From Escherichia coli (GTDB taxonomy: Bacteria > Pseudomonadota > Gammaproteobacteria > Enterobacterales > Enterobacteriaceae): a stretch of 64,000 nucleotides of DNA. The notes beneath the pieces were generated by a model. The model saw only the letters and a program-made list of their open reading frames with translations. It did no database searches and was not told where the DNA came from. The DNA lies in the NCBI RefSeq assembly GCF_024502345.1, contig NZ_JALDNN010000001.1; one strand, 5' to 3'. The translations under genes and the position numbers were made by a program. Below, one piece after another: positions 1 through 17,770 of the stretch (position 1 is its first letter; the number at the start of each line of letters is the position of its first letter).

Positions 1-161
1 ATTGCTATCGATGTTTTACCATATGTATTGAACGATATTCCTAAATTTGAAATAGATAATGAAATGGAAGCTCGCATTTGTGCCAGGATAGTGATGGAAC
101 GTTTTAAGCAAGATGCAAGTAGGCATATTAATAAGTATATATCACGTTATGAAAATGTTAG

Positions 162-1356
<1,195 letters not shown>

Positions 1357-2620: not shown

Positions 2621-2672
2621 TTTAGGTAGTCTCCTTTCATTGACGTTTCATCATCCGTCATGCGCGTTACAG

Positions 2673-3200: not shown

Positions 3201-3212
3201 TCTATGCTCCCT

Positions 3213-3491
3213 TCAGCTTTCCTTTTTGACAGACCTGCCTGCGTAGCGCTCAGGCCAGATAGTTTCGGGCGTGGTATCCAGTGCCTCAGCAATAATCTTT
3301 TCTGCCCGTGGATAGTGGCGCTCAAAAGCGTTACTCAGTGTCCTTGAGGCCAGCCCGTGATGCCGGGAGAGAGCAGACAGGGAAAGTCCCCGCTTGTGCA
3401 GGGCGGCGACAATATCAGCCCGGTGCCAGTTAACAGCACTTCCCTTACTTCGCTTTTTTTGCGAATCTGTTGAGTTACTCAATGTATTCAC
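3213..3491 (-). CDS. Ner/Nlp-family (phage Mu Ner-like) HTH DNA-binding regulator
   Basis: 92-aa protein; segment WHRADIVAALHKRGLSLSALSRHHGLASRTLSNAFERHYPRAEKIIAEAL...ETIWP resembles Ner/SfsB family. Confidence 0.7.
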   Translation of the reverse strand: MNTLSNSTDSQKKRSKGSAVNWHRADIVAALHKRGLSLSALSRHHGLASRTLSNAFERHYPRAEKIIAEALDTTPETIWPERYAGRSVKKES

Positions 3492-3603
3492 TCCGGGTTG
3501 TTAGTACTGGAGATATTAAAAGCGAACAAAGGGAAGTTATCAAGTTCCTTTTGTGGTTATTTGCGCTCATTTAACTAACGCTTTGATAAGAGGTGAAATT
3601 TTT

Positions 3604-3984
3604 ATGGGCAGTGAACAGATGACTGACCCCTGCGTTACCGGAATGACGGAGAGTGGGGGGTGGCTTACAGCAGAGCAGTTTGCCGGAATGGAAGGGATGC
3701 CGGGCACAGCGAAAGGGGCGCGACTACGTCTGGAAAAGCTCACTGCTCTGCACCCGGAAATCCGCCGCAAACGCACCAGTGGGAAGGGGTTTCTGTACCA
3801 TATCAGCGCGGCAGGGATGGCACTGAAAAGTGAGCGGGATGCGACAGATACCTCAGCAGACGAGCAGCTCAACCTCTGGATACAGCTGTTTCGCACAATG
3901 AAACCGGCCTCCAGGGATAAACTTTTGCAGCAGGCTCTGGCTCAGGTTGCGAGGGACCTGACTAAAGGAGACGTTAACCAGTAA
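3604..3984 (+). CDS. hypothetical protein, divergent from the Ner-like gene
   Basis: Track ORF 3553..3984; start moved to ATG 3604, which is preceded by AGAGGTG RBS. No recognised family. Confidence 0.45.
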   Translation: MGSEQMTDPCVTGMTESGGWLTAEQFAGMEGMPGTAKGARLRLEKLTALHPEIRRKRTSGKGFLYHISAAGMALKSERDATDTSADEQLNLWIQLFRTMKPASRDKLLQQALAQVARDLTKGDVNQ

Positions 3985-4067
3985 CAAGTGATAGATACTC
4001 TGGTTGCGCTGGAAGTGATAATAGGAATCATTTGCTTTAACAGTTTGATTTTGCTATAATTAATACA

Positions 4068-4691
4068 GTGGCAGTCATTGCGTACTCAGCCACTGTATTA
4101 ACCCATCCTGGCTTGTTCACAGCCATCACTTTTCCTGGAATAGCAACAATGACACTTCCCCGAGACGTTCATGCGTCCCGTCAGGGCCAGCATGACTACT
4201 TATGTGGCATCTACAGCTTGATTAACACCCTCAGTTACCTTTATGACGGCAGAGTACGGCGAGAAAAATTAATGTACCGCCTGCTTAGCAGCTATAAGCG
4301 ACGATGGGATTTATTTGATCTCCTGACGCTCGGTCTGGACGAGGAACAAATGGACCACCTGATTGGTGATGTTCTCCTGAAAGGGCATTACGCCCGGCAT
4401 TATCCCCTGAATTTTCATACCCCCTTCCGTTACCGCTCCCTGCGCAGCCGACAGATACTCAGCGACATCAGCGACTGGCTGGCGTTGCCGGAGAACCAGG
4501 CGCAGCGCGTGGTGATTCTGGGCACATCCTGGCACTGGTCTGTGGTAGTCCGTACCGATGCTACCCGGCTGTTCCTGTTTGACAGCTTGGGAATACGCAG
4601 CCAGCGCAGGGATACGTTCTCCGTACAGCCGGAGCTGAAGCGCCACACGCTGCTGCCGGACGCCATCTATTTCGTCGAACGTGAGTTCTGA
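4068..4691 (+). CDS. hypothetical protein with candidate Cys/His dyad (possible papain-fold or C39-like peptidase); start uncertain
   Basis: 207-aa ORF; motifs DYLCGIYSL and SWHWSVVV resemble cysteine and histidine segments of C39-type peptidases. Weak, by-eye call. Confidence 0.4.
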   Translation: MAVIAYSATVLTHPGLFTAITFPGIATMTLPRDVHASRQGQHDYLCGIYSLINTLSYLYDGRVRREKLMYRLLSSYKRRWDLFDLLTLGLDEEQMDHLIGDVLLKGHYARHYPLNFHTPFRYRSLRSRQILSDISDWLALPENQAQRVVILGTSWHWSVVVRTDATRLFLFDSLGIRSQRRDTFSVQPELKRHTLLPDAIYFVEREF

Positions 4692-4713
4692 CCCCTGCAG
4701 AAGGAGACTGACC

Positions 4714-5202
4714 ATGACTTTTACCGCCTGCGACCAGAGCGGTTTTTACCGGACCACCGGGCCGGTGTCCCGCGAGGATATTATCCGCTTTGCCCATACG
4801 CTGCTCTCCCGCCGGTTTCGCAATCGCCGAAAAATTACGTCCTCTAATGATGTTCACCAGTGGCTGGTGCTGAAGCTGGCAGAGGACACCCGGGAGAGCT
4901 TCGGAATGATACTGCTCTCGCAGCAGCACCATCTTCTGGGCTACCACATCCTGTTCACCGGGACGCTGAACCAGACCATGGTTTACCCCCGCGAAATTGT
5001 CGCTCTGGCGCTGACGCATCATGCAGCCGCAGTGATACTGGTCCATAACCACCCAAGCGGTGAGCCTGAGCCGAGCCAGGCCGATAAACTCATTACCCAA
5101 AAAATTACCGATGCGCTTTCACTCCTTGATATCCGCGTCGTGGACCACCTTATTGTGGGTGGTGACGATGCTTACTCCTTTGCAGAACACGGCCTGCTCT
5201 GA
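4714..5202 (+). CDS. RadC-like JAB/MPN-domain protein (YeeS/YfjY/YkfG family)
   Basis: C-terminal HNHPSG...D JAMM-like motif and ...DHLIVGG...SFAEHGLL tail typical of CP4-prophage RadC-like proteins. Start at ATG 4714, preceded by AAGGAG. Confidence 0.75.
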   Translation: MTFTACDQSGFYRTTGPVSREDIIRFAHTLLSRRFRNRRKITSSNDVHQWLVLKLAEDTRESFGMILLSQQHHLLGYHILFTGTLNQTMVYPREIVALALTHHAAAVILVHNHPSGEPEPSQADKLITQKITDALSLLDIRVVDHLIVGGDDAYSFAEHGLL

Positions 5203-5289
5203 GTGACCTGGTTTAATACACATTAACCACGGTAATCCACGTTCGCCTTATCCCTTCATTTTTAAACTGTAAATACTGAGGTTTTAACC

Positions 5290-5721
5290 ATGAACATCAA
5301 TGCCGTTATTCAGCCGGCAGGCTTTGTGCTGCCTGTCAGTCTGCAGCTGTTCGACATGCTGATGGTAGAAGCAGGCGAAAAAACCGCTAGTAAACATCGC
5401 ATTACCGCCGTTACGCTCAATTTCCGGGACCCGAACTACAGCGCGGAGCGGGGCGGCTATCACCCGGTGGAAATTCGGCTGGTTCACCAGGGGGATGAAT
5501 GGTGCCTGGACTACGCCACCGATTTTGGCTATGTCGGCAACGCTTACCCCGAGCTTGAGAAAATCATCGATATCAGTTGGTCGCAGGGCTACGTCTGGCA
5601 CTGCCGTACAGGGGATTTGTCCCCGTCTGAGGCGCGGGCGCTCTACACCCTGTGGGAGCGCAACTTCCTGAGCTATCACGCCAGTGGGGTCTACATCACC
5701 CGAGTGCTGTGGGAAAGCTGA
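5290..5721 (+). CDS. hypothetical protein in antitoxin position upstream of the CbtA-like toxin
   Basis: 143-aa ORF with GAGG RBS; no similarity I can recognise to CbeA/YeeU antitoxins, so function is inferred from position only. Confidence 0.45.
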   Translation: MNINAVIQPAGFVLPVSLQLFDMLMVEAGEKTASKHRITAVTLNFRDPNYSAERGGYHPVEIRLVHQGDEWCLDYATDFGYVGNAYPELEKIIDISWSQGYVWHCRTGDLSPSEARALYTLWERNFLSYHASGVYITRVLWES

Positions 5722-5864
5722 ACTACTGACCTGAGCTGCCGGGCGCACCGGTAAACATCCGTTCTCCCTTCTGGCGGGCGGGTTTCCATAAGCGCGGCTC
5801 GGGTTGCCGTTCATGTTCGCGCCCTCTTTTCAATACCATTCACATTACCCACGAGAATACTGTC

Positions 5865-6482
5865 ATGAAAAAACAACCTGTCTCACTGGCTCGGGAGACA
5901 TCGTGCTGCCTGTCGCCTGCTGATGTCTGGCGTACCCTGCTGACTCACCTGCTGGCACAGCACTATGGGCTTGCCCTCAACGATACGCCGTTTGGTGAGG
6001 AAGGCACCATTCAGGCGCATATTGACGCTGGTGTTACCATGATGGAAGCCCTGAATACCGTCGTTGAGAAGTATGATCTGGTACGTACAGATCGGGACAG
6101 TGTGGGCCTTCACCCTGGCTCCTCATTGATTACTGCTATTGATGTTCTCCGGGCGCGAAAAGCCACCGGGCTCCTGAAGCGGGGAGCATATCAGTTCGTG
6201 AGCCACATCACGCAGGGGCGCAGGCCCGCCCCGGACAGTGCAGTAACCGCCGGGCCCTCCGCGCCGTTACCATTGCTACCATCGGACACATTCACCCGAC
6301 AGGACGCGGTGTCCATTATGGCGGTGTATGACTGTGTGGCTATTGAGGATGACCAGCATACCCATTTCCGTCTGGCAATACGCGATGCTGAAGGTCAGCT
6401 TATCTGGCGGGCCTGGAACTTTGAGTCCGGAGCCGGGCAGGGGCTTAACCACTATCTGCAACGTTATGGTGTGAAAAAATGA
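5865..6482 (+). CDS. CbtA/YeeV-family type IV toxin homolog with ~80-aa C-terminal extension
   Basis: N-terminal ~125 aa (…VWRTLLTHLLAQHYGLALNDTPFGEEG...LVRTD...ILRARKATGLL...) resembles CbtA/YkfI/YpjF toxins; ORF continues to 205 aa. Confidence 0.65.
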   Translation: MKKQPVSLARETSCCLSPADVWRTLLTHLLAQHYGLALNDTPFGEEGTIQAHIDAGVTMMEALNTVVEKYDLVRTDRDSVGLHPGSSLITAIDVLRARKATGLLKRGAYQFVSHITQGRRPAPDSAVTAGPSAPLPLLPSDTFTRQDAVSIMAVYDCVAIEDDQHTHFRLAIRDAEGQLIWRAWNFESGAGQGLNHYLQRYGVKK

Positions 6483-6576
6483 CCACACAGGGCTGAATGG
6501 CATCCCCAGATGAATTGACTGCTTCCCCGGTCTGCATGGCCGGGATACTCCATTTTTAAGTATTGAGGATGATGTT

Positions 6577-7524
6577 ATGACCTCGAACCGCAAGGGCAGG
6601 CGTGCGGAAACTGTGCGCCAACAAAACGTCCCCACCATCAACCCGGCACAGCTTTGGCTGGCAGGTCTGACGCGCGCCGGGCGCAAGGGGATGCAAAGCC
6701 AGCTTCGGCGCTGTGCCGGTATCCTGCTTCCGGGCTCGGATACCGACAGCTACCCCTGGCAGATGCTGAACTACACGGGGATGATGCAGATCCGTGCGCA
6801 CATGCTGGATGCTGGCTATGCTGTCGCGACTGTCAACATGGCACTGTCGGCGCTGAAATCGGTTGCCTTTAGCGCGTTCAGTATGGGTCTGATGGATGCT
6901 GACACGCTTGCGCGCATACGCAACGTCAGGCGGGTCAGTGGTGACGGTTGTAGGCTGGGGCGTGCGCTGGCCCGCCATGAAATCCGGTCAATGCTGGCGG
7001 CGGCAGCGACGTTCTCCACTGTGCGCTGTCAGCGCGAACGGGCCATTTTGTTGCTTCTGTGTGGTGCCGGGCTGCGAGCGGGTGAGCTGGTTGCCCTGAA
7101 TGCGGAGGATATTGACGTTGCCGCAGGGATTGTCTGGGTCAGGGAGGGAAAAGGGCGCAAAAGTCGTGAAATTCACCTTGCCGCGAAGGTATGCACGCAG
7201 CTGCGCCGTTGGCTGAAGTGCCGTGGAGACCATGAAGGGCCGTTGTTCAGTCGTATCAGCCGGGCAGACCGGCCAGGGCCACACAGGCTTACCACGACTG
7301 GATTGACGGGGCTGTTGGCACAGCTACGCGAAGCCGCTGGCGTGGACTATTTCACCCCGCACGACCTCAGACGAACGTTCATCACACAGTTGCTGGAGCA
7401 GGGAACCGACCTCAACGTGGTACGCCAGCTTGCGGGGCATGCCGATATCGCCACAACCACCCGATATGACTACAGGGGCCGGGGTACGCAGGACAGAGCC
7501 TCCAGGGCTTTCTGTTGCTGGTAA
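6577..7524 (+). CDS. tyrosine-type site-specific recombinase (phage integrase family)
   Basis: 315-aa ORF with GAGGA RBS; C-terminal catalytic-domain signature HDLRRTF...LAGH...TTTRYDY (R-H-R-Y residues). Confidence 0.8.
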   Translation: MTSNRKGRRAETVRQQNVPTINPAQLWLAGLTRAGRKGMQSQLRRCAGILLPGSDTDSYPWQMLNYTGMMQIRAHMLDAGYAVATVNMALSALKSVAFSAFSMGLMDADTLARIRNVRRVSGDGCRLGRALARHEIRSMLAAAATFSTVRCQRERAILLLLCGAGLRAGELVALNAEDIDVAAGIVWVREGKGRKSREIHLAAKVCTQLRRWLKCRGDHEGPLFSRISRADRPGPHRLTTTGLTGLLAQLREAAGVDYFTPHDLRRTFITQLLEQGTDLNVVRQLAGHADIATTTRYDYRGRGTQDRASRAFCCW

Positions 7525-7823: not shown

Positions 7824-8339
7824 CTACGCCGAAGGACTGTCTGCCCGCTCTGTGCCATCCAGCTTTTCCATTGTTTGGATTACCCAGCGAAAATCATTTA
7901 TTTTTTCAGTCGTTTCCTTGCTCCATGTTTTGCCCGTTACTGCTGTTTTTTTCTTCTCTATATCCACTGGCGATGGATATTTTTTACAAAATTTGAGCAT
8001 GATATCCTTCAGTTCACACTTTTCCTTCAACTCATGAAATTTCAGATAGAGTTCTTTCAGCAGTTTCGCTTCTTTCGATACAGGTTCATATAAGTAGTCG
8101 ATGTAGACCATGTTGATCATGTTATCCAGCGCCTGGCGATATACTTTTCCTCTTCCTTTCTTCAGCATTGAATAATCGTCGTCGTCAAGCCAGTTAGCGA
8201 TCTCCAGTAAACGCTCCTGGCTGTCTTCATGCAGGTTGATTTCAAACCGCTTTCCATATTTCTCCTCCAGCCCTTTGCGGCTTTTCTGCTTAGGCGTCCT
8301 GGGCTCCGCCTTAGCCATATTTTCTTCGTTTTTTCCCAT
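7824..8339 (-). CDS. hypothetical lysine/glutamate-rich protein in an AT-rich segment
   Basis: 171-aa ORF is the only long frame in the AT-rich 7.6-8.4 kb block; divergent from alpA; no recognised family. Confidence 0.45.
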   Translation of the reverse strand: MGKNEENMAKAEPRTPKQKSRKGLEEKYGKRFEINLHEDSQERLLEIANWLDDDDYSMLKKGRGKVYRQALDNMINMVYIDYLYEPVSKEAKLLKELYLKFHELKEKCELKDIMLKFCKKYPSPVDIEKKKTAVTGKTWSKETTEKINDFRWVIQTMEKLDGTERADSPSA

Positions 8340-8431: not shown

Positions 8432-8545
8432 CAAAAGTGGGCCGCGAACACTTTGACCGGCGATCGCCATGAATAATCGGCCGAAATCAACTTTGTAAAG
8501 GGAGGGCTGGCCGCCCACTGGGGGTGGATAGATGGAGTTAAAAAT

Positions 8546-8752
8546 ATGAATAACTGCAGGCTGCTCGATATCAAGACTGTGCTCGGGATGTACCCAGTAT
8601 CACGCGCAACGTTATATCGCCAGATCAAGGCGGGGCTCTTTCCGGAGCCTGTACGCATCGGTGCCCGTCGGGTGGCATGGCGTATGGAGGATATCCACGC
8701 GCATATCAGTGGGCTGCCCAATGTTGAGCTGGCTGAAGCAGCTCGTCTGTAA
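8546..8752 (+). CDS. alpA: AlpA-family phage regulatory protein (excisionase-like HTH)
   Basis: 68-aa protein; LLDIKTVLGMYPVSRATLYRQIKAGLFPEPVRIGARRVAWRMEDI matches AlpA/Xis-like HTH pattern. Confidence 0.8.
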   Translation: MNNCRLLDIKTVLGMYPVSRATLYRQIKAGLFPEPVRIGARRVAWRMEDIHAHISGLPNVELAEAARL

Positions 8753-8853
8753 GCCTCATATAGCCCCTCGTACAGGGGTTCATTCACCATAGTCAGTAGC
8801 ACCTCTACGGATAGCTACTGACATGAATTGCCGTGAGGCTAAGGGAACTGGCG

Positions 8854-9948
8854 ATGATTACAGTTAATCGTGAGCGTGTGGACAATCTCTCCGGGTCTGT
8901 ATACCTGGGGCGAAATACTGACGGCAATAGGTGCTATGGGCGAATTGATAAACTCGCCTGGGTAATGGATTTGTCTGATGATAGCGAGAATGCAGTGCTG
9001 AGTGGGCGTCTGGCTGGGCTGAGAGCGGGAGGGAACTATATCGTGCGGTGCCGCCCTGCCGGTAAAGGGGAGTGTTCTGGCCTCTATCGATCCGTGGTGG
9101 AGATCCGTCTCAAGAGTAAATCCAGTCATCATCCGCTGATGCTGGTCATTTACTTTGCGCCGACGAATACGGTGCGGGGCTCAGTGCGTATGGAAATGAG
9201 TCCTCAGCACTATTCAGCAGAGCAGATCACAGGACTGTTCATCTGGCTTGGGCGTAAGGGACGTCTGGGGAAGTACCTGTACAGGGGCTTGCGCCAGGCA
9301 TGGGTGACGTCCATTCACTACGCACTGGATGTAAAGGGAATGAAACTTCATGACTACCTGATTGGTCTGGCAAAGGTTCATGATGGTGAGTTTTACGATT
9401 TGCATGGTGAACAGGAAGGGTTGCGTCTGGGCTCTGCCACGCTGGTAGCCTCTGTCTACGCCAAGGTCCATTCTCCGTCGTTGAGCGTGGAGGAGCGCTA
9501 TGCATCTCCAAAGATTACGCTGGAGGAGGCGCAATTCGAGCGTTTTTTACGTCTGGAACTCCGCCTGCAGCCGGGGCGCCAGCAATTGAAGCTAAGTCAG
9601 ATGACGAGTATGACCTGTCTGGTCAGCAGGCTGATGTTCTGGCGTCGGGAGGTACTCCAGGATCGTCGGCTGGATCCGGATTTTGCGCAGCGGCTGGCGT
9701 TGATGTCAGTACCACGTGCACGGGCCACGTTTGAGCCCGCGAGGAGTCTGAATGGCCACAGAGTCAGTGCAACCCCAAAGGCTGCCAGGAAACGCGTGGA
9801 CAAGGTCATGGCTAATTACCGGGCGGCATTGTTTGATTCTGCGGCTATCTGGGACCAGTTACCGGTCATTCTCGCAAAACTCGGGCTTCTCGCGCAGCCT
9901 CAGTACTGGATTTACCGTAATCGCGTGAAGTGGCGAGGGAGCCGCTGA
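8854..9948 (+). CDS. hypothetical island protein, 364 aa
   Basis: Track ORF begins at GTG 8833; ATG 8854 with upstream AAGGGA RBS preferred. No Walker or nuclease motif recognised. Confidence 0.5.
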   Translation: MITVNRERVDNLSGSVYLGRNTDGNRCYGRIDKLAWVMDLSDDSENAVLSGRLAGLRAGGNYIVRCRPAGKGECSGLYRSVVEIRLKSKSSHHPLMLVIYFAPTNTVRGSVRMEMSPQHYSAEQITGLFIWLGRKGRLGKYLYRGLRQAWVTSIHYALDVKGMKLHDYLIGLAKVHDGEFYDLHGEQEGLRLGSATLVASVYAKVHSPSLSVEERYASPKITLEEAQFERFLRLELRLQPGRQQLKLSQMTSMTCLVSRLMFWRREVLQDRRLDPDFAQRLALMSVPRARATFEPARSLNGHRVSATPKAARKRVDKVMANYRAALFDSAAIWDQLPVILAKLGLLAQPQYWIYRNRVKWRGSR

Positions 9949-10301
9949 AGATAAGCCAGAAGCATATTAGAGGGGGTGTGATGCCACCCTCGTCTGTGGC
10001 GACCAAAAAAATGGCTCCCCCTGATATGTTCTGTGAGGCACGCCTCATCACAGCTGAACAGGGGGTGTGGCTATAGTATGGTGTATACAGTACATACCAG
10101 TACCAGTCTGTTCCCCCTCTGGAACCCTCAATGAGATTGCGACAAGTCACAAGGCATTGTTTTGAGGAAAATTCAGATCCTGAGATAGCCCCCCAAAAAA
10201 TGCAGCCAGCCTGAGTCACATCACTCTGCGCAACCGTAATTCACTGTGCAAATGTACAGCCTGTAAACAGGCAGCATGTTCATAAAACGGAGCACAGTGA
10301 A

Positions 10302-11786
10302 ATGAAAGCCTACTGCACACAAAACAATATTCTCGTCACGGAAAGCACGATGAATGCTTTCAGGGAGGCCATTTTTAGCGTTCCATTCGACGACACATGT
10401 GACGGACGATGCAAGCCAACGTGGTATATGTCCATTGCTATTTTTTTGCAGCATCTTATTTGCAGCGCCACTGCGAGCCGTAACACGCGTAAGCGGTCGC
10501 AATTTAAGGGGAACCGACTATGGACCTGTTCAGTTCCGTTTCCTTATGCACTGGGAGAAAAAGTGGCTCCGGCAGTATTCAGACGCTCAAGAGAGCTACC
10601 GTTTGAAAGAGCGCTGGAAAAGCTGGAGGAAGTAGGGTTTATCAGAATCATTACACACGATGTTATACGTCACAAATGCCGGGAATTTGCGCTTTCTCGG
10701 CGGTTTCTCGACGTGCTGTTTCCCGGGGACAGAACTGCTTATCTCAACCTGGAAGATCGGTATGGCTATCTGACCGATGTTTACCGCAGACGTATGGGAC
10801 CGATGACGCTGGAAGAACGGCTTGCTCAGGCCATGTTACGAAAGTGCAAAGTCAGGCATTTAACGTCAACCCGGAATATACCTGATAAGGCCTTTCGTGA
10901 GCGGGTTGCAGCGGTGTATGACCGGCTTGAAGCGTTGCCGGTTAACATCGATGCGCTGAGGATGTACTGTAACGAGCAACCATCCACTGTGAACAGGGTT
11001 TATTATCACAATTTTATCAGCCATCTTTGTGAAGCCGGTGTTGAGGCTATCAGCCTGAGTCCGTTAATCGTCTCATATCGGCAGGTATATCGTACGGCTA
11101 GGCTGGGCGGGCGTTCGTTTGAGGTGGGGAAGGGGTTTCAGTATCTGCCAAAAGGCATGAAATGGGCATGTCTGGGGCAGGGCTATAACTACGATATAAA
11201 AAGCAGCCAGCTTGAGATACTGCGTCATGAGCTGCAGCGTATCGGATTATCCGATAAAAACCTGAAGCGGCTGGAAACGGATTACATTACAAAGAAACTG
11301 GGCGTCACCACGGATGAGGTAAAACAATTTAGGTTTGCTGCTGTCTTTAGCGCTGGTTCGGTCAGCCTTTCAGTGAAAAGTGGAGTAAGGAAGAGGCTGA
11401 ATAAAGTTCTCGGCGATAAGAGGGCAGAAAACGTGCTCAAACGCTGGAAAAAATTGATGCAACCGCTACGGGAAGATCTGAAGAGGCTGATCGAGGATTA
11501 TCTGGCGACGGGAACCACAAATCGATACGGGCTTTGCGTGAAAAATGCTGTGGGACAAAATTTTAACTGTAGCTGGAAGAATTTCAGCGCCAGACAGGCA
11601 TGGCAGCCAGCGCAGATGCACCGAAAGCTGCTTGCGCACATGTTACAGGGGCTGGAAAGTCAGGCTGTGTACGATTATGTTGCCAGCAATAAAGGCGTTT
11701 GTGCGCTAGAGCATGATGGGTTTGTTACATATGAAGAGATAACTGACTGGTCCCATCCATATCTTTTGATAGAGAAAAAGCATTGA
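10302..11786 (+). CDS. hypothetical island protein, 494 aa
   Basis: Long ORF directly upstream of hsdM; no helicase or nuclease motifs, so it is not HsdR. Confidence 0.5.
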   Translation: MKAYCTQNNILVTESTMNAFREAIFSVPFDDTCDGRCKPTWYMSIAIFLQHLICSATASRNTRKRSQFKGNRLWTCSVPFPYALGEKVAPAVFRRSRELPFERALEKLEEVGFIRIITHDVIRHKCREFALSRRFLDVLFPGDRTAYLNLEDRYGYLTDVYRRRMGPMTLEERLAQAMLRKCKVRHLTSTRNIPDKAFRERVAAVYDRLEALPVNIDALRMYCNEQPSTVNRVYYHNFISHLCEAGVEAISLSPLIVSYRQVYRTARLGGRSFEVGKGFQYLPKGMKWACLGQGYNYDIKSSQLEILRHELQRIGLSDKNLKRLETDYITKKLGVTTDEVKQFRFAAVFSAGSVSLSVKSGVRKRLNKVLGDKRAENVLKRWKKLMQPLREDLKRLIEDYLATGTTNRYGLCVKNAVGQNFNCSWKNFSARQAWQPAQMHRKLLAHMLQGLESQAVYDYVASNKGVCALEHDGFVTYEEITDWSHPYLLIEKKH

Positions 11787-11922: not shown

Positions 11923-13458
11923 ATGAAGCAAGAAACGATCGTTCAAAAAATTTGGAGTCTCTGCAACATACTAAGAGGTGATGGTATCACCTATTATCAG
12001 TATGTTTCTGAACTAAGTTATTTGCTTTTTCTGAAGATTGCTCAAGAAAATGGTTCAGAAAAGCTGATACCTCAAGGCTACCGCTGGGCTGATCTTGAAT
12101 CCCATCCAGAAGCAGGATTATTAGGGTTTTATCAAGAGATGCTCACTCACTTGGGTGCGCATGTTAAAAATGAAATCATAAGAGAGATTTACGCATTCCC
12201 TACAACCGTTTTCTCCCATTCTGAAAATTTAAAAGCTGTTGTAGATGGTATTTCGAAAATAGAGTGGCACCAAGTAGGAAAAGATGGGTTTGGCGACCTC
12301 TATAGTGGTTTAATTGATAAAAGTGCTCAAGATACGCGTTCGGGAGCCGGGCAGTATTTTACTCCACGCTCTTTAGTTAACACGATAGTGAGATTGATAA
12401 AACCGAGTCTTGGCGAATTGATTCAAGATCCTGCGTCAGGAAGTGGTGGCTTCTTAGTTTCTGCTGACAGCTATATTCGAGTCAAATATTCACGAAAAGA
12501 GTATCAATTGAACCCTCCTAAATATCAAGGAGTGGAAATAGAGAAAAATACTCGTCGAATTTGCTTAATGAATACCTTTTTACATGATTTAGATGCACAC
12601 ATTATCTATGGTGATGCACTGACTGATGACGTAGCAGGGTTGGATGAAGCCGATGTAATCTTAGCCAATCCCCCTTTTGGCAATAAGGCTGGGGGACAAC
12701 GTCCTTTACGTAACGATATTCCATTCCCCAATACAAATAAGCAATTAGCTTTTTTGCAGCATATTTATTTGAAGCTTAAAGCTGGCGGTCGAGCTGCTGT
12801 AGTGGTACCCGATAATGTACTATTCGAATCTGGGGTTGGTACCGATGTACGTCGTGACTTAATGAATAAGTGCAATCTTCATACTATCTTGCGACTGCCC
12901 ACTGGTATTTTTTACGCCCAAGGTGTTAAAACCAATGTTCTGTTCTTTACTAAAGGCTCTGACAAAGATAAATATCAACAAGATAGCTGCACTGAGAACG
13001 TCTGGGTATACGATCTACGTACCAATATGCCAAGTTTTGGTAAACGTACACCCTTCGGTAATTCAGATATTGGCTTTGCGGCAGAAGATTTCGGTACAGA
13101 TCAGCACCTCGGCGCGTTCGAAAAAGTGTTCGGAGATAATCCAGACGGCACCAGCAAGCGCACCGAAGGTGAATACAGCTTTGGTGCAACAGATATTGAA
13201 ATTGATACAGAAGCAGTAGAAGAAAACCTGAATGTTGATGAACAGCTAGCCCATTCTCGCTGGCGCTACTTCAGCCGTGAGTGGATAGCCAATAATAAAG
13301 GCGATTCGCTGGATATCTCATGGTTAAAAGACAAAAAGAGTGTCGATGCGGCTGGTTTATCCGAGCCAAACGTTCTCGCTCGCGAGGCAAAAGAAGAATT
13401 AGAAGCAGCATTGAGTGAGCTGGATAGTTTATTGATCGCATTGGAAGGGGCCGAATAA
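11923..13458 (+). CDS. hsdM: Type I restriction-modification N6-adenine DNA methyltransferase subunit HsdM
   Basis: 511 aa; SAM-binding and catalytic motifs (DPASGSGGFL; ANPPFG) typical of HsdM; AT-rich codon usage. Confidence 0.9.
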   Translation: MKQETIVQKIWSLCNILRGDGITYYQYVSELSYLLFLKIAQENGSEKLIPQGYRWADLESHPEAGLLGFYQEMLTHLGAHVKNEIIREIYAFPTTVFSHSENLKAVVDGISKIEWHQVGKDGFGDLYSGLIDKSAQDTRSGAGQYFTPRSLVNTIVRLIKPSLGELIQDPASGSGGFLVSADSYIRVKYSRKEYQLNPPKYQGVEIEKNTRRICLMNTFLHDLDAHIIYGDALTDDVAGLDEADVILANPPFGNKAGGQRPLRNDIPFPNTNKQLAFLQHIYLKLKAGGRAAVVVPDNVLFESGVGTDVRRDLMNKCNLHTILRLPTGIFYAQGVKTNVLFFTKGSDKDKYQQDSCTENVWVYDLRTNMPSFGKRTPFGNSDIGFAAEDFGTDQHLGAFEKVFGDNPDGTSKRTEGEYSFGATDIEIDTEAVEENLNVDEQLAHSRWRYFSREWIANNKGDSLDISWLKDKKSVDAAGLSEPNVLAREAKEELEAALSELDSLLIALEGAE

Positions 13459-15143
13459 TGATTGAGACTTCTTTACCATGGCTGAGAGTCCAGCTCGGTG
13501 ACGTAGTTCCCTATGGTAAAACCGAAAAATGCGAATTATCTGACGTTACAGGTAACACTTGGGTACTTGAGCTCGAAGATATAGAAAAAGATAGCTCGAA
13601 GATCATACAACGGCTAGATGCAACTGCACGACCATTTAAAAGCACGAAAAATAAATTCCGTAAAGGAGATGTCCTTTACGGGAAACTGCGACCTTACTTA
13701 AATAAAGTTGTCATTGCGGACAGTTCTGGCGTTTGTTCGACTGAAATCATGCCTCTAAATGCTGAGCCATTTATTGACAATAGGTACCTCTTTTACTGGT
13801 TGAAAACTGAAGTTTTTATTGATTTTGTAAATTCTGTAAGCTACGGCGTGAATATGCCTCGACTCGGAACTAAAGATGGATTAGCTGCTCCATTTATTGT
13901 AGCTCCGCTTGCTGAGCAAAAAGTTATTGCCGATAAACTTGATACCTTGTTGGTGCAGGTGGATGCCATTAAGGCTCGCCTCGAACGCATCCCAGAAATC
14001 CTAAAAACCTTCCGCCAATCGATCCTCACCGCCGCAGTTAGTGGGAAGTTGACGGAGGGATGGCGATTAAAGAATAAACTCAGTAATGTAGTTGTAAAAC
14101 AAAATATCAATCTACCAAAATTAACCCCAAATGAACACTACCTCGAACATGTTGAAGGATGGCAATGGGTAAGACTGGGTTCTGTTGTTAGTCTAATAAA
14201 CGGCGATAGAGGAAAAAACTACCCTAATAAAAATGAATATGTTAAGGATGGAATACCGTTCATAAATACAGGGCATATTAATTCAGATGGAACACTTTCT
14301 GATGAACGCATGAATTTTATTTCCAAGGATAAGTTTGACTCCTTAAGTGGGGGAAAGACGAAATCAACAGATCTAGTTTATTGCCTCCGAGGTGCAACTA
14401 TGGGAAAAACTGCACGTGTCCACTACAAAATAGGGGCAATAGCATCCTCTCTTGTAATTATCCGACCGAGTGATTACATAGACAGAGATTTCGCATATTA
14501 TTTTCTTATTAGCCCTCCGGCTAAAGATTTAATTAATGAATTTGATAACGGATCCGCTCAGCCAAATCTATCTGCAAAGAGTTTGTCTACATACCCTTTA
14601 CAACTCCCTTCGTTTAAAGAACAAATCGAAATCGTCAGTCGCGTCGAAGAAATGTTCAACTTTTCATCTCTTGCCGAAGCAAAAGCTAAAACTGCATTAG
14701 AGCGTGTCAATAAAATTACTCAATCAATCCTAGCCAAAGCTTTCCGAGGCGAACTCACTGCAGATTGGCGCGCCGCCAACCCGGATTTAATCAGCGAAGA
14801 GAAAAGTGCTGAAGCTTTGCTGGAAAAAATTAAGGCAGAACGTGAAGCCATCGAAAAACAACCTAAGCCAACACGTTCCGTTATAAAAAAAAATACAGGT
14901 GGCCGTATGAGTAAACAGATTATCAAAGTGGTTGAAGCGCTAAAACAAGCGGGAAAACCGCTTAGTGGCCAACAATTGTTAGCTGCAGCTGGTTACCCTA
15001 GTGATAGCAGTACTGAGCAACTGGAACAGTTCTTTCTGGATATACGTGACGCTCTTACCATAGAAGAGTCCATTGTAAAGCTTGAGCGCGGTGGCGACAG
15101 TCAAGATTGGTTCGCCTTGGCTAATAATAAAGCAAAGAACTAA
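13458..15143 (+). CDS. hsdS: Type I restriction-modification specificity subunit HsdS with ~120-aa C-terminal extension
   Basis: Start ATG overlaps hsdM stop (ATGA). Two variable target-recognition regions separated by conserved helical repeats (...PLAEQKVIADKLDTL... and ...LPSFKEQIEIVSRVEEM...ILAKAFRGEL), then an extra tail. Confidence 0.85.
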   Translation: MIETSLPWLRVQLGDVVPYGKTEKCELSDVTGNTWVLELEDIEKDSSKIIQRLDATARPFKSTKNKFRKGDVLYGKLRPYLNKVVIADSSGVCSTEIMPLNAEPFIDNRYLFYWLKTEVFIDFVNSVSYGVNMPRLGTKDGLAAPFIVAPLAEQKVIADKLDTLLVQVDAIKARLERIPEILKTFRQSILTAAVSGKLTEGWRLKNKLSNVVVKQNINLPKLTPNEHYLEHVEGWQWVRLGSVVSLINGDRGKNYPNKNEYVKDGIPFINTGHINSDGTLSDERMNFISKDKFDSLSGGKTKSTDLVYCLRGATMGKTARVHYKIGAIASSLVIIRPSDYIDRDFAYYFLISPPAKDLINEFDNGSAQPNLSAKSLSTYPLQLPSFKEQIEIVSRVEEMFNFSSLAEAKAKTALERVNKITQSILAKAFRGELTADWRAANPDLISEEKSAEALLEKIKAEREAIEKQPKPTRSVIKKNTGGRMSKQIIKVVEALKQAGKPLSGQQLLAAAGYPSDSSTEQLEQFFLDIRDALTIEESIVKLERGGDSQDWFALANNKAKN

Positions 15144-15152
15144 GGACAGCCC

Positions 15153-16757
15153 ATGAAAGTCGACAAACTGCATATTCGCTCACGCTTTAAAAATCTTGAA
15201 AACGTGAAAGTGGACTTTGACGAAAACCACCTGATGACCGTTATCGTAGGCCGTAATGGTTCCGGTAAGTCCAATGTTCTAGAAGCCTTGGTTGCTATAT
15301 TTCGCAATCTTGATTTAGGTGAAGCACCAACATTTTCTTATGAGTTGGACTATCAACTAGGTGAGGAAGCCGGGGTTAAGTGGTATGACGTCAAGGTTGA
15401 TGCAGATCCAGACCGCGGAACGCTAGCAAAGCAATACCAAGTTTATGTCAAAGATAAACACGATAGCAAAGCGGATTTCAAGCTTACACCCTTCTCCAAA
15501 GTGAAACGCGATAAGAAAACCAAACAAGCAGAGTTTCTTCCTAACTTTCTATTCGCCTATTATTCCGGACCATCGGATAGATTAGAAAAATACTTTCGAA
15601 AGCATCGTGATGATTATTATCGAAACCTACTCTACAACAAGCTTGACTTGAAAGCAGATATTCGTTCTCTATTTTATGCCAAACCCTATCACAGTCAGTT
15701 TGTGCTCTTGGCATTTTTCCTGTCAGATGAAAATAGTCCTCAGCGCAAGTTTATTAAGGAGCATTTGGGTATTGAGGGATTGGACAGTATTCATTTTGTG
15801 ATGCGCCAACCTGAGTGGGCTAAGCTGAAGGGGGAATTATTCTGGGGAGCACAAGGTGTAGTTCGTCGCTTTTTGGATGAATTGATACAGCACACATTGT
15901 CACCGATAAAAGTAACTCGTCAAGAAGATACGTCGTTAACGGGTAGTTATATTCGAAATGAGTTCTTTCATCTATTTTTACCTGACGTAAACGCACTACA
16001 TGAATTTGCTAGAGATCTCAGTGCTGACGAACTGTTTAAAATGCTTGAAAGCACTCTGCTGTCAGAAATTATCTCTGAGGTTAGCATACGGGTGAAAGTA
16101 ACCAGCAGCAGGGAGCCTCTCACTTTCCGTGAACTTAGCGAAGGTGAACAACAGCTATTAACCGTATTGGGCTTACTCTGGTTCACCGGTGGTAAAGATT
16201 CCTTATTTTTACTCGACGAACCTGATACCCACCTTAATCCGTCATGGGCCGTTAAATACCTTAAATTCCTGCGTGAATTCGTACCCAATCATGAAACCAG
16301 CCATTTACTAATGGTCACACACCATCCTTTAGCTATTGCCGAGCTGAAGAAACAACAAGTACAAGTCATGTGGCGTGACGATGAAAATAATGTTCACTCA
16401 CAAGAGCCTTATATAGATCCTCGTGGCGCTGGCTTTATGGCCACACTTACTGAGATTTTTGGTCTAAATACAACACTGGATCTGGAAACCCAAAAGTTAT
16501 TGGACGATAGGAACGAACTAGCCCATATCGAAAATCGAACAGAAGATCAGAACAACCAGCTTGACCTTCTTAATGATGAGTTAAACAGACTAGGATTTTC
16601 ACTTGAAAACAGGGACCCGTTATACAGCGAGTTTCTTTTAGCATGGCAAGACCTAAGATACAGCGATAAACCACCACTAACACCGGATAAAGCGGCTCAG
16701 AGACGAGCTGCTATGAAAAATGTAATTGAGGCGCTTAAAGCTAAGAAGGGTTGCTAA
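15153..16757 (+). CDS. ABC-type (AAA_15/AAA_21-like) ATPase, Septu PtuA-like
   Basis: 534 aa; Walker A GRNGSGKSN, signature-like LSEGEQ, Walker B LFLLDEPDTHLNP, H-loop VTHHP; starts 10 bp after hsdS with AAGGA RBS. Confidence 0.75.
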   Translation: MKVDKLHIRSRFKNLENVKVDFDENHLMTVIVGRNGSGKSNVLEALVAIFRNLDLGEAPTFSYELDYQLGEEAGVKWYDVKVDADPDRGTLAKQYQVYVKDKHDSKADFKLTPFSKVKRDKKTKQAEFLPNFLFAYYSGPSDRLEKYFRKHRDDYYRNLLYNKLDLKADIRSLFYAKPYHSQFVLLAFFLSDENSPQRKFIKEHLGIEGLDSIHFVMRQPEWAKLKGELFWGAQGVVRRFLDELIQHTLSPIKVTRQEDTSLTGSYIRNEFFHLFLPDVNALHEFARDLSADELFKMLESTLLSEIISEVSIRVKVTSSREPLTFRELSEGEQQLLTVLGLLWFTGGKDSLFLLDEPDTHLNPSWAVKYLKFLREFVPNHETSHLLMVTHHPLAIAELKKQQVQVMWRDDENNVHSQEPYIDPRGAGFMATLTEIFGLNTTLDLETQKLLDDRNELAHIENRTEDQNNQLDLLNDELNRLGFSLENRDPLYSEFLLAWQDLRYSDKPPLTPDKAAQRRAAMKNVIEALKAKKGC

Positions 16758-17599
16758 TGATTTACATCAAACGAGACGCCACGCTAATTCCTGCAAAGGT
16801 ACTTGCCGTTGCCCAACGCGCGCAAGATGCTCTGGAACAGCTTCCCGCTGAGCAGAGGAAAGGTTTCATCAAGAAAAAGTCTCATATATGGAGAGGCTTT
16901 TCTAAATACCTAGCCCAAATGTCTTATGGGAAGTGCTGGTATTCAGAAGCTAAAGATGCAGGTGCAAATTTCGATGTAGATCATTTCCGACCTAAGGCTG
17001 AAGCAAAGAGGACAGAAGATTTGGTCGATGCGGATGGTTATGCGTGGCTCGCATTTGATTGGGAAAACTTCAGGCTTTCTGCTCAGAATTGTAACCGTTT
17101 AAACACAGATGAATCAGGTAACACGGTAGGAAAAGGCAGTTGGTTCCCGCTGCTAGATGGTAGCCCTAAAGCCTGCTGGGATAATCGCTGTATTAACGAT
17201 GAAAAAGTCACTTTGCTAGACCCTGTAGTTAAAGCTGACCTCACCTATATAGACTACGACGACAGCGGTAGATTTACTTCAAGTAAGCTCTGCGTTGGTA
17301 AGGCAGCATTAAGGGTTAGGCAATCTGGCATTATTTATGGCCTCAATTTGGAGAAAATGCGTGAAGCACGATTTCAGGTTATGAGGGAGGCTAAAGAACT
17401 CCTTGAAACTATTCACCAATGTGCCGAAGACTTAGACCCTCTGGGCAATGAAGCCCCCATGAGAACTATTGAACGACAAATAGAACAACTCCAATCCAGA
17501 ACCCGGGCCGATGCACCATTTAGCCGTGCAGTAAGAACACAACTGATAAAACTCGGTGCAGAGGATTACTTAATTGATCGAAGTTTGGATGCAGCCTAG
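16757..17599 (+). CDS. HNH endonuclease-domain protein, Septu PtuB-like
   Basis: ATG at 16757 overlaps the upstream stop (TAATG); HNH-type motif CWYSE...DVDHFRPK...NFRLSAQNCNRLN. Confidence 0.7.
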   Translation: MIYIKRDATLIPAKVLAVAQRAQDALEQLPAEQRKGFIKKKSHIWRGFSKYLAQMSYGKCWYSEAKDAGANFDVDHFRPKAEAKRTEDLVDADGYAWLAFDWENFRLSAQNCNRLNTDESGNTVGKGSWFPLLDGSPKACWDNRCINDEKVTLLDPVVKADLTYIDYDDSGRFTSSKLCVGKAALRVRQSGIIYGLNLEKMREARFQVMREAKELLETIHQCAEDLDPLGNEAPMRTIERQIEQLQSRTRADAPFSRAVRTQLIKLGAEDYLIDRSLDAA

Positions 17600-17770
17600 T
17601 TGTTTATCTTTCTGATAATGGGGTTGTCCGTTAGCCAACCTGATATATTGCTTAAAGGGCTTGCCCGATGAGTGAGCCTTTGACGGGGCTTGATATGAAT
17701 TTGCGTAGAAGTTTTGGTATACTGTTTAAACGATGTCTTTCAGCCCAGATTCAACTTCTTAGGAGTGATT

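Follow-up and report, generated by a model that had tools for sequence, protein, structure and literature searches.

The DNA analysed here is a window of 64,000 nucleotides from Escherichia coli. In this window, a 353-bp intergenic region lies between two genes, p371 (rep) and p494 (pol). The boundaries first assigned to it are correct, since the upstream open reading frame (ORF) ends at 9948 and the downstream one starts at 10302. In the RefSeq annotation of a 99.8%-identical E. coli genome, both flanking genes are hypothetical proteins and the spacer is unannotated. The features of the locus are as follows.

8854..9948, plus strand: p371, predicted Rep_trans-like replication initiator, 364 aa from the ATG at 8854, with an alternative GTG at 8833
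9949..10301: rep-pol spacer
9957..10033, plus strand: long imperfect hairpin just 3' of the rep stop codon, holding copy 1 of AGGGGGTGTG and an A7 tract
9971..9980, plus strand: AGGGGGTGTG, copy 1, lineage-specific
10003..10013, plus strand: A-tract motif CCAAAAAAATG, then the half-box ATGGCT (10010-10015)
10034..10047, no strand assigned: small G+C-rich hairpin TGAGGC-ac-GCCTCA
10060..10069, plus strand: AGGGGGTGTG, copy 2, which shares the first two bases of the conserved box
10068..10081, plus strand: conserved box TGGCTATAGTATGG, candidate origin, priming or nick site
10185..10202, no strand assigned: inverted half-box ATAGCCCC, then an A6TG tract
10236..10243, plus strand: conserved motif GTAATTCA, the 5' foot of the leader hairpin
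10240..10301, plus strand: pol leader hairpin with arms TTCACTGTGC (10240-10249) and GCACAGTGAA (10292-10301), abutting the p494 start codon
10302..11786, plus strand: p494, predicted minimal family-A (TV-Pol-like) polymerase, exonuclease domain absent

The genes that flank the spacer

The two genes are part of an island backbone found in Enterobacterales, with the order integrase, AlpA, p371, long spacer, p494 and then variable defence cargo. The same gene order is seen in Klebsiella, Hafnia, Brenneria, Serratia, Salmonella, Pectobacterium, Proteus, Morganella and others. Every locus has an integrase and AlpA, defence cargo such as restriction-modification systems lies downstream, and a non-coding gap of 350-700 bp separates the p371 and p494 homologues in every syntenic locus. 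Where cargo genes (GmrSD, reverse transcriptase and others) have been inserted, the insertion is always on the side of the box that faces rep. A search of PLSDB gave no autonomous plasmid carrying the Rep-Pol module, IMG/VR gave no relative of p494, and the p494 homologues of jumbo phages are accompanied by neither a Rep homologue nor the box. The literature searched for the p371-p494 gene pair gave no description of it. There is also a conserved gene of ~170 aa on the minus strand at 7824-8339.

The predicted structure of p371 has a Rep_trans fold, and we consider the protein a probable Rep_trans-type rolling-circle initiator on this basis. At threshold it does not match the Pfam profile PF02486, for which one of 13 homologues reaches E 0.005, and a p371 profile search against PDB sequences returned nothing. 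Sequence searches with both p371 and p494 against Pfam, PADLOC, PHROGs and PDB found only phrog_30690, which is of unknown function, and Pfam domains were absent from the ten long distant homologues used for identification. Both proteins are labelled 'hypothetical' everywhere, with no Pfam or PADLOC match. Y202-x-K204, D159 and E235 are invariant in the p371 family and are candidates for the catalytic tyrosine and the acidic metal ligands. The predicted model starts with beta strands and is without the N-terminal HTH typical of MOBT proteins.

For p494, the predicted fold contains the thumb, palm and fingers core of family A without a nuclease domain, which suggests an exonuclease-less, TV-Pol-like polymerase. 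Ahead of this core there is an N-terminal domain of ~250 aa with predicted winged-helix-like elements. With equivalences assigned by eye, D298, D472 and R271 are invariant and the contexts NYDIKxxQLEIL, EHDGF and GGRSF are Pol-I-like; the fingers have K341-x-x-R344 where RxxxK is expected; and the steric-gate-like E305 is E in 22, A in four and D in one of 27 sequences. An hhalign comparison of the p494 family with segments of Klenow and T7 RNA polymerase, for which approximate sequences were used, gave no alignment. The context associated with TV-Pol and CCPol genes (initiator helicase, integrase, mobile hot spots) is found at the p494 loci. No conserved small gene was seen adjoining pol that might encode a counterpart of MP, the small OB-fold protein on which priming by CCPol depends.

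Repeats and hairpins in the spacer

The preliminary description had reported a motif occurring twice, near 9968 and 10063. This motif, GGGGGTGTG, is indeed repeated (9972-9980 and 10061-10069, within a few bases of the positions quoted), and the exact repeat is the G-rich 10-mer AGGGGGTGTG, whose copies are 89 bp apart. These two copies are the only ones in the 64-kb window (0.12 expected), and at least two copies occur in 2 of 100 shuffles. None of the 43 other related loci has the 10-mer, so it is lineage-specific. The imperfect palindrome reported with it is real (GTGAGGCACGCCTCATCAC, 10033-10051), and the small G+C-rich hairpin is its core. Unlike the G-rich 10-mer, this palindrome corresponds to a structural element kept family-wide. 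Runs of C (10018-10022, 10113-10117, 10190-10195) and of A (10005-10011, 10196-10201) are present as described. The statement that no ORF fits also stands: three mechanical ORFs overlap the spacer (117 aa, minus strand; 48 aa, plus strand; 93 aa, minus strand), none is annotated, and the underlying sequence is unconserved in relatives.

Other repeats were considered and set aside. The pair of GGGGCTAT sequences flanking rep (8760 and 10185) has no weight by itself, since chance would be expected to yield about one shared 8-mer. Private iterons beside the box, in the form of exact 10-mers, are found in the window and in locus L008 only and are marginal.

The rep-adjacent hairpin has a minimum free energy of -31.3 kcal/mol (z -3.78), and none of 200 shuffles is equally stable. 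At its place the relatives have a terminator-like hairpin of differing sequence. An A7-9TG motif is also found in L027, L002 and L039, 55-75 nt upstream of the box, and the tract is A7 in the window and A8 in E. coli ET490. No obvious AT-rich unwinding element was seen in the window copy of the spacer.

It had been proposed that the region could hold a small RNA. In its fuller form, this explanation has the spacer encode an RNA transcribed from the box, either a small regulatory one or a structured non-coding one that serves the polymerase (for example as template or pre-primer). Other defence systems have polymerase genes with upstream non-coding RNAs, and at ColE1-type origins a pre-primer RNA is extended by a family-A polymerase. 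Taken as a whole, the region is somewhat more stably folded than shuffles, on either strand (z ~ -2.3). However, the only significant local folds are the rep-adjacent hairpin and the leader hairpin, and between box and half-box the folding is no more stable than that of shuffles (z +0.12 and +0.23). Even elements with proteins 62-71% identical, moreover, give no alignment of the 100-150 nt that follow the box. No intrinsic terminator was found, and Rfam 15 gave no match at gathering threshold in the whole window and none with E<=1 in 8500-10500; the spacers of four related loci were equally without a match. We therefore think an RNA gene very improbable.

A conserved hairpin-box unit

Selection on the parts of the spacer was judged by comparing ~25 related loci. 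The box stands out, with a mean top-base frequency of 0.90 against 0.43-0.50 in its flanks (16 clade representatives), and the conserved stretch extends over 14-18 contiguous bases. Most loci have 0-2 mismatches to TGGCTATAGTATGG, and the core GCTATAG is kept in all island loci except the most distant one, L016 (GGCTATAT). The box reads as TATGG/TGTGG-C-TATAG-TATGG, that is, three TATRG-like pentamers around a CTATAG palindrome, and there is one box per element. The sequence CTATAG followed by a G run is reminiscent of single-subunit RNA polymerase promoters.

What is conserved is a unit made of the small G+C hairpin, ~21 nt and the box. A small hairpin 18-35 nt upstream of the box is present in almost every clade, though its stem varies by clade (GAGGC/GCCTC, GAGG/CCTC, GCACC/GGTGC, GCCACC/GGTGGC, GATGCTG/CAGCATC). 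In group A the box is plus-oriented and 202-249 nt from the pol ATG. In group B, nine loci forming one Pol clade, the whole hairpin-box unit is inverted and ~170 nt from the ATG; this type occurs in 2 of 5426 complete E. coli genomes. With regard to a possible phase-variable (fim-like) inversion of the unit, its orientation is constant inside each Pol clade among the loci compared. Further GGCTAT half-sites are found at about -58 and +116 relative to the box, and an inverted half-box ~+115 nt from the box is also present in L003 and L035.

The box travels with the Pol and not with the Rep lineage. Reps that are merely 23-61% identical adjoin Pols that are 87-92% identical, and the recombination breakpoints are located either in the C-terminal third of Rep or within ~100 nt of the start of the spacer. 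In L013, a DUF927 P-loop protein replaces Rep while box and Pol are unchanged. In its conservation, its single copy, its preceding hairpin and its inversion as part of a whole unit, the box behaves like a site dedicated to recognition by a protein. We considered more specific roles for it. A general promoter for an element-encoded RNA polymerase is rejected because the box occurs only once per element. A specific Rep_trans nick site is weakened because the box is constant across these divergent Rep lineages and is present beside the DUF927 protein as well.

At the box there is no evident counterpart of the canonical Rep_trans nick motif, which is CT'AA in a loop formed by a G+C-rich inverted repeat; the box has CTATAG and not CTAA and shows no consistent hairpin-loop placement. 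A TCTAAT on the minus strand (9964-9969) falls in an internal loop of the rep-adjacent hairpin, and such a 4-mer is statistically weightless. These observations bear on the possibility that the spacer is an oriT, with p371 as a MOBT-type relaxase that nicks the box so that the excised island is mobilised by a co-resident conjugative element. The Rep_trans fold is common to the MOBT relaxases of ICESt3, Tn916 and ICEBs1, in which the bound site can be 68 bp from the nick site (PMC9371924), and the island has an integrase and AlpA and is without transfer genes. Against an oriT are the missing loop motif, the lack of a MOBT-type N-terminal HTH in p371, the persistence of the box where a helicase-type DUF927 protein replaces Rep, and the adjoining dedicated polymerase, which points to replication. 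We consider an oriT quite improbable.

A leader hairpin and the proposed control of p494

The motif GTAATTCA is present in most loci with at most one mismatch, 38-69 nt ahead of the pol ATG, and a TAGC(C/T)-plus-A-tract motif recurs ~40 nt upstream of it, again in most loci. It forms the foot of the leader hairpin (minimum free energy -23.5 kcal/mol, z -3.72), a stem over the translation-initiation region, with the Shine-Dalgarno GGAG at 10289-10292 and the ATG at 10302. The covariance analysis bears out this structure. All ten positions pair in each of seven sequence variants of the arms. In alignment A3, 98% of the cells are paired, five of the ten pairs show compensatory changes and none of 500 shuffles matches the score, though the pair count leans towards structure because the arms were picked by complementarity and the loops taken out. 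Slid controls are 36-46% paired. The U-G wobbles are consistent with the plus strand only. Between the end of the 3' arm and the ATG there are 0, 2 or 8-9 nt, and the arm covers the GGAG in L003, L035, L037 and L038. There is also a 9-codon ORF at 10276-10305, and its stop codon overlaps the pol ATG.

The spacer had been suggested to regulate the downstream gene by way of a promoter. The regulatory role is upheld by the covarying leader hairpin, and the promoter is not. In the promoter reading, transcription of rep ends at a terminator-like hairpin, the box serves as the -10 element of an unusual pol promoter (activator-dependent, for example on AlpA, or of the extended -10 type), and the remainder is 5' untranslated region. 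Most loci do have a hairpin after the rep stop codon, TATAGT or TAGTAT can be read inside the box (TATAAT in L010), and a G-rich stretch is found at the expected transcription start. In all group-A loci the distance from box to ATG stays within the range given above, with no insertions between box and pol, and the leader hairpin itself indicates an existing mRNA leader. However, a scan of 9800-10400 found no sigma-70 promoter and no intrinsic terminator. TATAGT is the only -10-like hexamer and has no accompanying -35 element (the -35 position reads CACAGC, GATAGC or TCAGGC), and its critical final T is lost in three lineages (TATAGA in L014, L033 and L007). Conservation of the box also far exceeds a hexamer, the box is invariant while its surroundings get replaced, and the whole unit is directed away from pol in the nine group-B loci. 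We consider a pol promoter at the box unlikely, though it is the main rival of an origin and deserves more weight than an RNA gene or an oriT.

The features first noticed could also be chance features of a non-functional spacer. The G-rich 10-mer is unconserved, and finding a 9-10-mer twice in 353 bp is only marginally improbable. However, the box, its upstream hairpin, GTAATTCA and the leader hairpin are conserved or covarying in hosts of several enterobacterial families. Chance is hardly tenable, since it is already contradicted by these comparative data.

Discussion

Since a rolling-circle-type initiator and a minimal family-A polymerase are predicted to flank the spacer, a replication origin is the leading interpretation of the box. 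We suggest that the spacer combines a replication origin or priming site with a translational leader, resembling the modules of SCCmec and SaPI, and we give this reading a probability of about 0.5. The layout is that of mobile-element origins: it is intergenic, adjacent to the initiator gene, and has short direct and inverted repeats, together with two hairpins. Inversion of the whole unit in one Pol clade favors an origin because an origin tolerates inversion and a gene promoter does not. The conserved synteny, the conservation and single copy of the box and its association with Pol also speak for this reading. Against it count the missing CT'AA loop motif, the -10-like hexamer that group A keeps within 202-249 nt of the pol ATG, the lack of an obvious AT-rich unwinding element, the absence of matches in PLSDB and IMG/VR, and the phage homologues of p494 that have no box. 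There are precedents for such an arrangement. TV-Pols are predicted to prime and replicate mobile elements that carry an integrase (PMC2579912). In SCCmec, the origin is a group of intergenic inverted repeats together with three 5-nt iterons; it is the preferred priming site of an A-family polymerase, and CCPol-MP primes de novo there (PMC7581432). SaPI origins lie directly 3' of the initiator gene, as far as the summary in PMC7581432 goes, and Rep_trans proteins read their origin with a C-terminal helical domain (PMC9371924).

In the proposed origin mechanism, the spacer would be the cis-acting center of a two-gene replication module consisting of p371 and p494. The rep-adjacent hairpin, the A-tract, the G+C hairpin, the ~21 nt, the box and the extra GGCTAT half-sites would form an origin-like array. 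After excision driven by Int and AlpA, initiator and polymerase may assemble on the hairpin-box unit. DNA synthesis would begin there, either at a nick made by Rep or by de novo priming by the polymerase, and the orientation of the unit would set its direction. The GTAATTCA-anchored hairpin pairs with bases between the Shine-Dalgarno sequence and the AUG and so should keep translation of the polymerase low or conditional.

A bolder version can be put forward tentatively. Here p494 would be a sequence-specific primase-polymerase whose conserved N-terminal, winged-helix-containing domain reads the hairpin-box unit as a promoter-like origin, and the enzyme would start synthesis de novo at that site. 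The initiators, a Rep_trans nickase or a DUF927 helicase, would be interchangeable. The islands would then be a new class of self-replicating defence islands with a family-A polymerase, a counterpart of the pipolins. We consider this version unlikely.

A close parallel is SCCmec 'pattern 2', with CCPol-MP and Cch2 (Bebel et al., eLife 2020, PMC7581432). Both elements are integrative and have an exonuclease-less A-family TV-Pol (as predicted here) beside an initiator. Both have a candidate origin of intergenic inverted repeats by the initiator gene, with 5-nt direct repeats, and in both the C-terminal domain of the initiator is tied to the origin (PMC7581432). They differ in that the initiator is Cch2 helicase in SCCmec and a predicted Rep_trans-type nickase here (DUF927 in one locus). 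There is no evident MP-like small partner here, and p494 has its own N-terminal domain. The hosts are staphylococci in one case and Enterobacterales in the other, sequence similarity is undetectable, and the island module is known from sequence and predicted fold.

The likeness to the TV-Pol family (Iyer, Abhiman and Aravind 2008, PMC2579912) extends to the minimal nuclease-free family-A core, with an extra N-terminal globular domain in a subset, and to the lambda-type integrases, the integration hot spots beside restriction-modification operons and the D5-like helicases. The members of that family are predicted primase-polymerases (PMC2579912). Membership of p494 is judged by fold and context only, and there are differences. 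The TV-Pol N-terminal domain is all-helical (PMC2579912), whereas that of p494 is predicted to have strands and winged-helix-like elements, and the TV-Pol fingers have RxxxK in place of the KxxR of p494 (K341, R344). No cis site is described for TV-Pol elements, unlike the box here.

At the double-strand origin of the pT181 family, the initiators RepC and RepD (PMC4797284, PMC9371924) have the fold predicted for p371. Both systems have an origin core conserved across divergent Reps with lineage-specific neighboring sequence, hairpin-forming inverted repeats, and a Rep C-terminal domain linked to the cognate DNA. However, no CT'AA in a hairpin loop is found at the box, and the candidate origin follows rep instead of lying within or ahead of it. 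The box goes with the polymerase gene and not with the Rep lineage, and the element carries its own polymerase.

SaPI and other PICI elements are also integrase/AlpA-type islands and, according to the summary in PMC7581432, have a short-repeat origin directly 3' of the initiator gene. They differ in that their initiators are helicases or primases. The island here is without packaging genes, and its module is unmatched in IMG/VR. Pipolins (piPolB, PMC11551731) resemble the islands in being integrative, with a self-encoded atypical DNA polymerase and exchangeable defence cargo. The pipolin polymerase is a primer-independent family-B enzyme, in contrast to family A here, and pipolins are not known to have a Rep_trans partner or a comparable conserved box.

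The usual view of defence islands is that they carry cargo passively and rely on integrases for their movement. The backbone described here brings its own predicted initiator and minimal family-A polymerase, with a compact and near-invariant cis site between them. If the spacer is an origin, widespread enterobacterial islands would amplify themselves after excision, with consequences for how stable they are, for their transfer and for defence-gene dosage. It would also add a second case, Gram-negative and genetically tractable, in which an A-family polymerase works at a defined origin; only SCCmec has been studied so far. In addition, the 14-nt box would then be a simple marker for such elements and for their cargo insertion points.

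Genomic setting of the rep-pol spacer

The island is inserted between mutS and ygbA in an Escherichia chromosome, and is present in just 5/5426 complete E. coli genomes. Its local gene order is listed below.

Local gene order in the island
6577-7524: integrase
between integrase and AlpA, minus strand: gene for a protein of ~170 aa
8546-8752: AlpA
8854-9948, plus strand: p371 (rep), a Rep_trans-type rolling-circle initiator by predicted fold
9949-10301: rep-pol spacer
10302-11786, plus strand: p494 (pol), an exonuclease-less family-A polymerase by predicted fold
after p494: hsdM, then hsdS
15153-16757: Septu PtuA
16751-17599: Septu PtuB
after PtuB, minus strand: Fic/PDC-S04 gene

The cargo (11923-18555) is a defence cluster, and no hsdR accompanies its type I hsdM and hsdS anywhere in the island. 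About 25 loci from many enterobacterial genera repeat the order (RadC), integrase, minus-strand gene, AlpA, Rep, long spacer, Pol and variable cargo. The spacer measures 350-700 bp in all of them, except where cargo has been inserted. Upstream of the Rep-Pol element (window 1-6500) is a second integrase module, in which a 426-aa integrase adjoining mutS is followed by RadC, DUF2787, a truncated CbtA toxin and DUF905. Every related locus has RadC ahead of its ~306-aa integrase; therefore, we regard the Rep-Pol element either as one segment of a larger CP4-like island or as a neighbour in tandem with one. Elsewhere, a five-tRNA-gene array and the MicA sRNA (minus strand), at 57700-58559 and 61473-61544, are ordinary core-genome features. 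In E. coli ET490 (L001), fhlA (the record says 'flhA'), which encodes the transcriptional activator of formate hydrogenlyase and lies downstream of ygbA, is annotated as frameshifted.

The flanking proteins

Neither p371 nor p494 has a sequence match in Pfam, PADLOC or the PDB. The p494 family is widespread in Enterobacterales, where all named entries are annotated 'hypothetical'. The exonuclease domain is absent, and the N-terminal ~250 residues give local winged-helix-like matches. Invariant residues lie in Pol-I-like contexts (GGR271SF, NYD298IKxxQLEIL, K341xxR344, R441xxxxxxxQ449G and EH471D472GF), the equivalences being our own reading of the sequence. Against viral models, Foldseek returned uncharacterised jumbo-phage proteins, virophage 'DNA replication' proteins and phage family-A DNA polymerases. 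TV-Pols are minimal family-A polymerases, some with an additional N-terminal domain; they are integrase-linked, occur in hot spots with restriction-modification operons, and are predicted primase-polymerases (Iyer et al. 2008, PMC2579912). The one characterised member, CCPol of SCCmec, primes with dNTPs at a putative origin (PMC7581432). The profile of p494 fits both the TV-Pol concept and CCPol. The Pol-I-like O-helix pattern (K341, F/Y345, F349) and the mostly conserved E305 suggest that the product may be DNA, although E305 is alanine in 4/27 sequences. Homologues of p494 in jumbo phages (~26% identity; L036 from Erwinia phage Alexandra, L042/L043 and L044) are also preceded by non-coding spacers, of 370-500 nt. 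These phage loci have neither the box described below nor a Rep homologue.

Repeats and hairpins in the spacer

The spacer is bounded by the stop codon of an upstream ORF, which ends at 9948, and by the ATG at 10302. The preliminary description had noted a twice-repeated G-rich motif, a palindrome and runs of C and A here, and all are present: AGGGGGTGTG at 9971-9980 and 10060-10069, GTGAGGCACGCCTCATCAC at 10033-10051, and runs of C5-6 and A6-7. It also stated that no ORF fits; the three mechanical ORFs overlapping the spacer are unannotated in a 99.8%-identical RefSeq genome and the sequence beneath them is unconserved in relatives. These two are the sole copies of AGGGGGTGTG in the 64 kb, versus 0.12 expected. 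This repeat is real and locally improbable, yet private to the window's lineage. Copy 1 forms the 5' side of a hairpin adjoining rep, and copy 2 adjoins and overlaps the box. In locus L008, a private 10-mer of the same kind sits at -24 and -92 relative to the box there. Such private 10-mers could be lineage-specific initiator-binding repeats, for which the statistics are marginal.

The rep-adjoining hairpin (9957-10033, 77 nt, imperfect; -31.3 kcal/mol, z -3.78) contains copy 1 and the A-tract, and relatives have terminator-like hairpins of differing sequence in the same place. The tract (10005-10011) is one base longer in ET490 (A8) than in the window (A7), the copies being otherwise ~99.8% identical; this is a homopolymer length polymorphism. 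From box to half-box, segments 10052-10125 and 10120-10236 fold no better than shuffles, and resist alignment even with L027 and L002, in which identity to the window's proteins is 62-64% for Rep and 71% for Pol. The spacer matches no known RNA family, and we consider it improbable that it encodes a non-coding RNA.

A conserved hairpin-box unit

Global alignment of the spacers fails save for a few blocks. Counting k-mers in 17 spacers gave three motifs, TGGCTATAGTATG, GTAATTCA and AAAAAATG. The box, TGGCTATAGTATGG (10068-10081), has 0-2 mismatches in most loci. Variants TAGCTATAGAGGGC (L033), TGGCTATAGAGGGG (L007) and GAGCTATAGTGTAT (L041) keep the core GCTATAG, and in L016, the most distant relative, the box is reduced to GGCTATAT. 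Among 16 clade representatives, mean top-base frequency is 0.90 in the box versus 0.43-0.50 in its flanks. That the motifs arose by chance is hardly credible. Each element has exactly one box. A small G+C-rich hairpin, which in the window is the palindrome of the preliminary description, sits upstream of the box by 18-35 nt, in most clades by 20-25 nt, and has a clade-specific stem. This unit points to pol in group A, which comprises the window plus at least 14 further loci, and its distance to the ATG is 202-249 nt there. The 9 group-B loci have the entire unit inverted, ~170 nt from the ATG, with the internal spacing unchanged at 21 nt and the spacer sequence still similar (ATCACAGCTGAAC... 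versus ATGATAGCTGATAC...).

Since the box includes TATAGT, it could be read as part of an atypical promoter with a UTR. This is unlikely. No -35 element accompanies the hexamer, its final T is lost in L014, L033 and L007, conservation reaches well past six bases, and group B has the box in inverted orientation. Neither a canonical sigma-70 promoter nor an intrinsic terminator is present in the spacer. Being single copy, the box is not a general promoter for a polymerase encoded by the element.

Read as pentamers, the box is TATGG/TGTGG-C-TATAG-TATGG, i.e., very short direct repeats. GGCTAT half-sites occur in the window as ATGGCT at 10010 and inverted as ATAGCCCC at 10185; in L003 and L035 they lie at -49 and +115 relative to the box. 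In L012 (Enterobacteriaceae bacterium RIT693, ~5735-5790), ~8 tandem copies of the 7-nt TGGATAA, similar to the box's own 5' edge, directly adjoin the box. A second conserved non-coding motif, TCT(G/A)TAAGCCTCATATAGCCCC, lies directly past the alpA stop (8750-8780) and in homologous alpA-rep spacers. It contains an inverted GGCTAT half-box, is CTCTAATAGCCC in L010 and L035, where it resembles the Rep_trans CT'AA nick context, and lies in a 66-nt tandem duplication in L008. This motif could be a second candidate cis site for Rep.

A hairpin over the pol start

The motif GTAATTCA (10236-10243) opens a leader hairpin (-23.5 kcal/mol, z -3.72). Its 3' arm extends from the last G of the Shine-Dalgarno GGAG to the base preceding the ATG. 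The arms covary across relatives.

Arms of the leader hairpin
Window: 5' TTCACTGTGC (10240-10249); 3' GCACAGTGAA (10292-10301)
L002: 5' TTCATTGTGC; 3' GCACAATGAA
L008: 5' TTCAATTTAC; 3' GTAAATTGAA
L037: 5' TTCATTGCGT; 3' ACGTAATGGA
L038: 5' TTCATTGTGT; 3' ACACAATGGA
Group B: AATTCAgTTGTA and TACAgGTGAATT

In an arms-only alignment, with arms picked by complementarity and loops removed, 98% of cells are paired and 5/10 pairs have compensatory changes. None of 500 shuffles matched the observed score, and slid controls pair at 36-46%. Twelve U-G/G-U cells would be C-A mismatches on the opposite strand; therefore, it is the sense transcript that carries the structure. In every case the 3' arm falls on the translation-initiation region, ending 0, 2 or 8-9 nt ahead of the ATG, and it covers the Shine-Dalgarno itself in L003, L035, L037 and L038. 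Taken on its own, this hairpin is very probably genuine. A 9-codon ORF (MFIKRSTVK, 10276-10305) begins in the loop, and its TGA overlaps the p494 start (ATGA). Relatives have 3-5-codon ORFs terminating at the TGA of a conserved TGAAATGA. Though the peptide is unconserved, translational coupling could open the hairpin.

Separate histories of Rep and Pol

Rep and Pol have evolved along different paths. Group B Pols are mutually 87-92% identical, yet are paired with three Rep lineages only 23-61% identical; L003 and L035 share 92% identity in Pol and only 33% in Rep. By sliding-window comparison, the recombination breakpoint falls within the final ~120 codons of rep for L003/L035, and ~100 nt into the spacer for L020/L030. 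Thus, the bulk of the spacer moves together with pol. The Rep C-terminal domain, which in pT181-type Reps reads the origin (PMC9371924), moves either with the spacer or with the rep-adjoining hairpin. Cargo within the spacer is always on the rep side of the hairpin-box unit.

Cargo inserted in the spacer
L002/L028/L029, 3598-5433: GmrSD type IV restriction enzyme
L040, 236-1924: RVT_1 reverse transcriptase
L013, 3739-4959: two unknown genes

In L013 (Mangrovibacter phragmitis), a 562-aa DUF927 P-loop protein (1995-3683) takes the place of Rep beside a group-B box and polymerase.

Discussion

Earlier work (2008, 2020, 2023) has already described TV-Pol elements, and A-family primase-polymerases at the origins of mobile elements. 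In the searchable literature, whose coverage is incomplete, we found no description of such a polymerase paired with a Rep_trans-type initiator in the integrase/AlpA defence islands of enterobacteria, of the conserved hairpin-box unit, or of the pol leader hairpin.

We suggest that the spacer combines an origin-type cis element with a translational leader, the best-supported reading, at a probability of about 0.5. This is because both neighbouring genes encode replication proteins, and the box is single copy and tolerates inversion. As in SaPI and PICI elements, the site also directly follows the initiator gene; it segregates together with the polymerase and, in one pair of recombinants, with the C-terminal domain of Rep. 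In addition, inverted repeats and very short direct repeats are combined as in the SCCmec origin, the preferred start site of its A-family primase-polymerase (PMC7581432). That the spacer is instead an oriT seems to us quite improbable, slightly less so than a non-coding RNA. No obvious Rep_trans consensus nick, CT'AA in a hairpin loop (PMC9371924), is seen at the box. The box does not vary between Rep lineages and is present even with the DUF927 protein, which points to Pol, via its conserved N-terminal domain, or a host factor, rather than Rep, as the putative reader. Since a DUF927 protein can stand in the Rep position beside a group-B box and Pol, initiators of differing kinds would be interchangeable.
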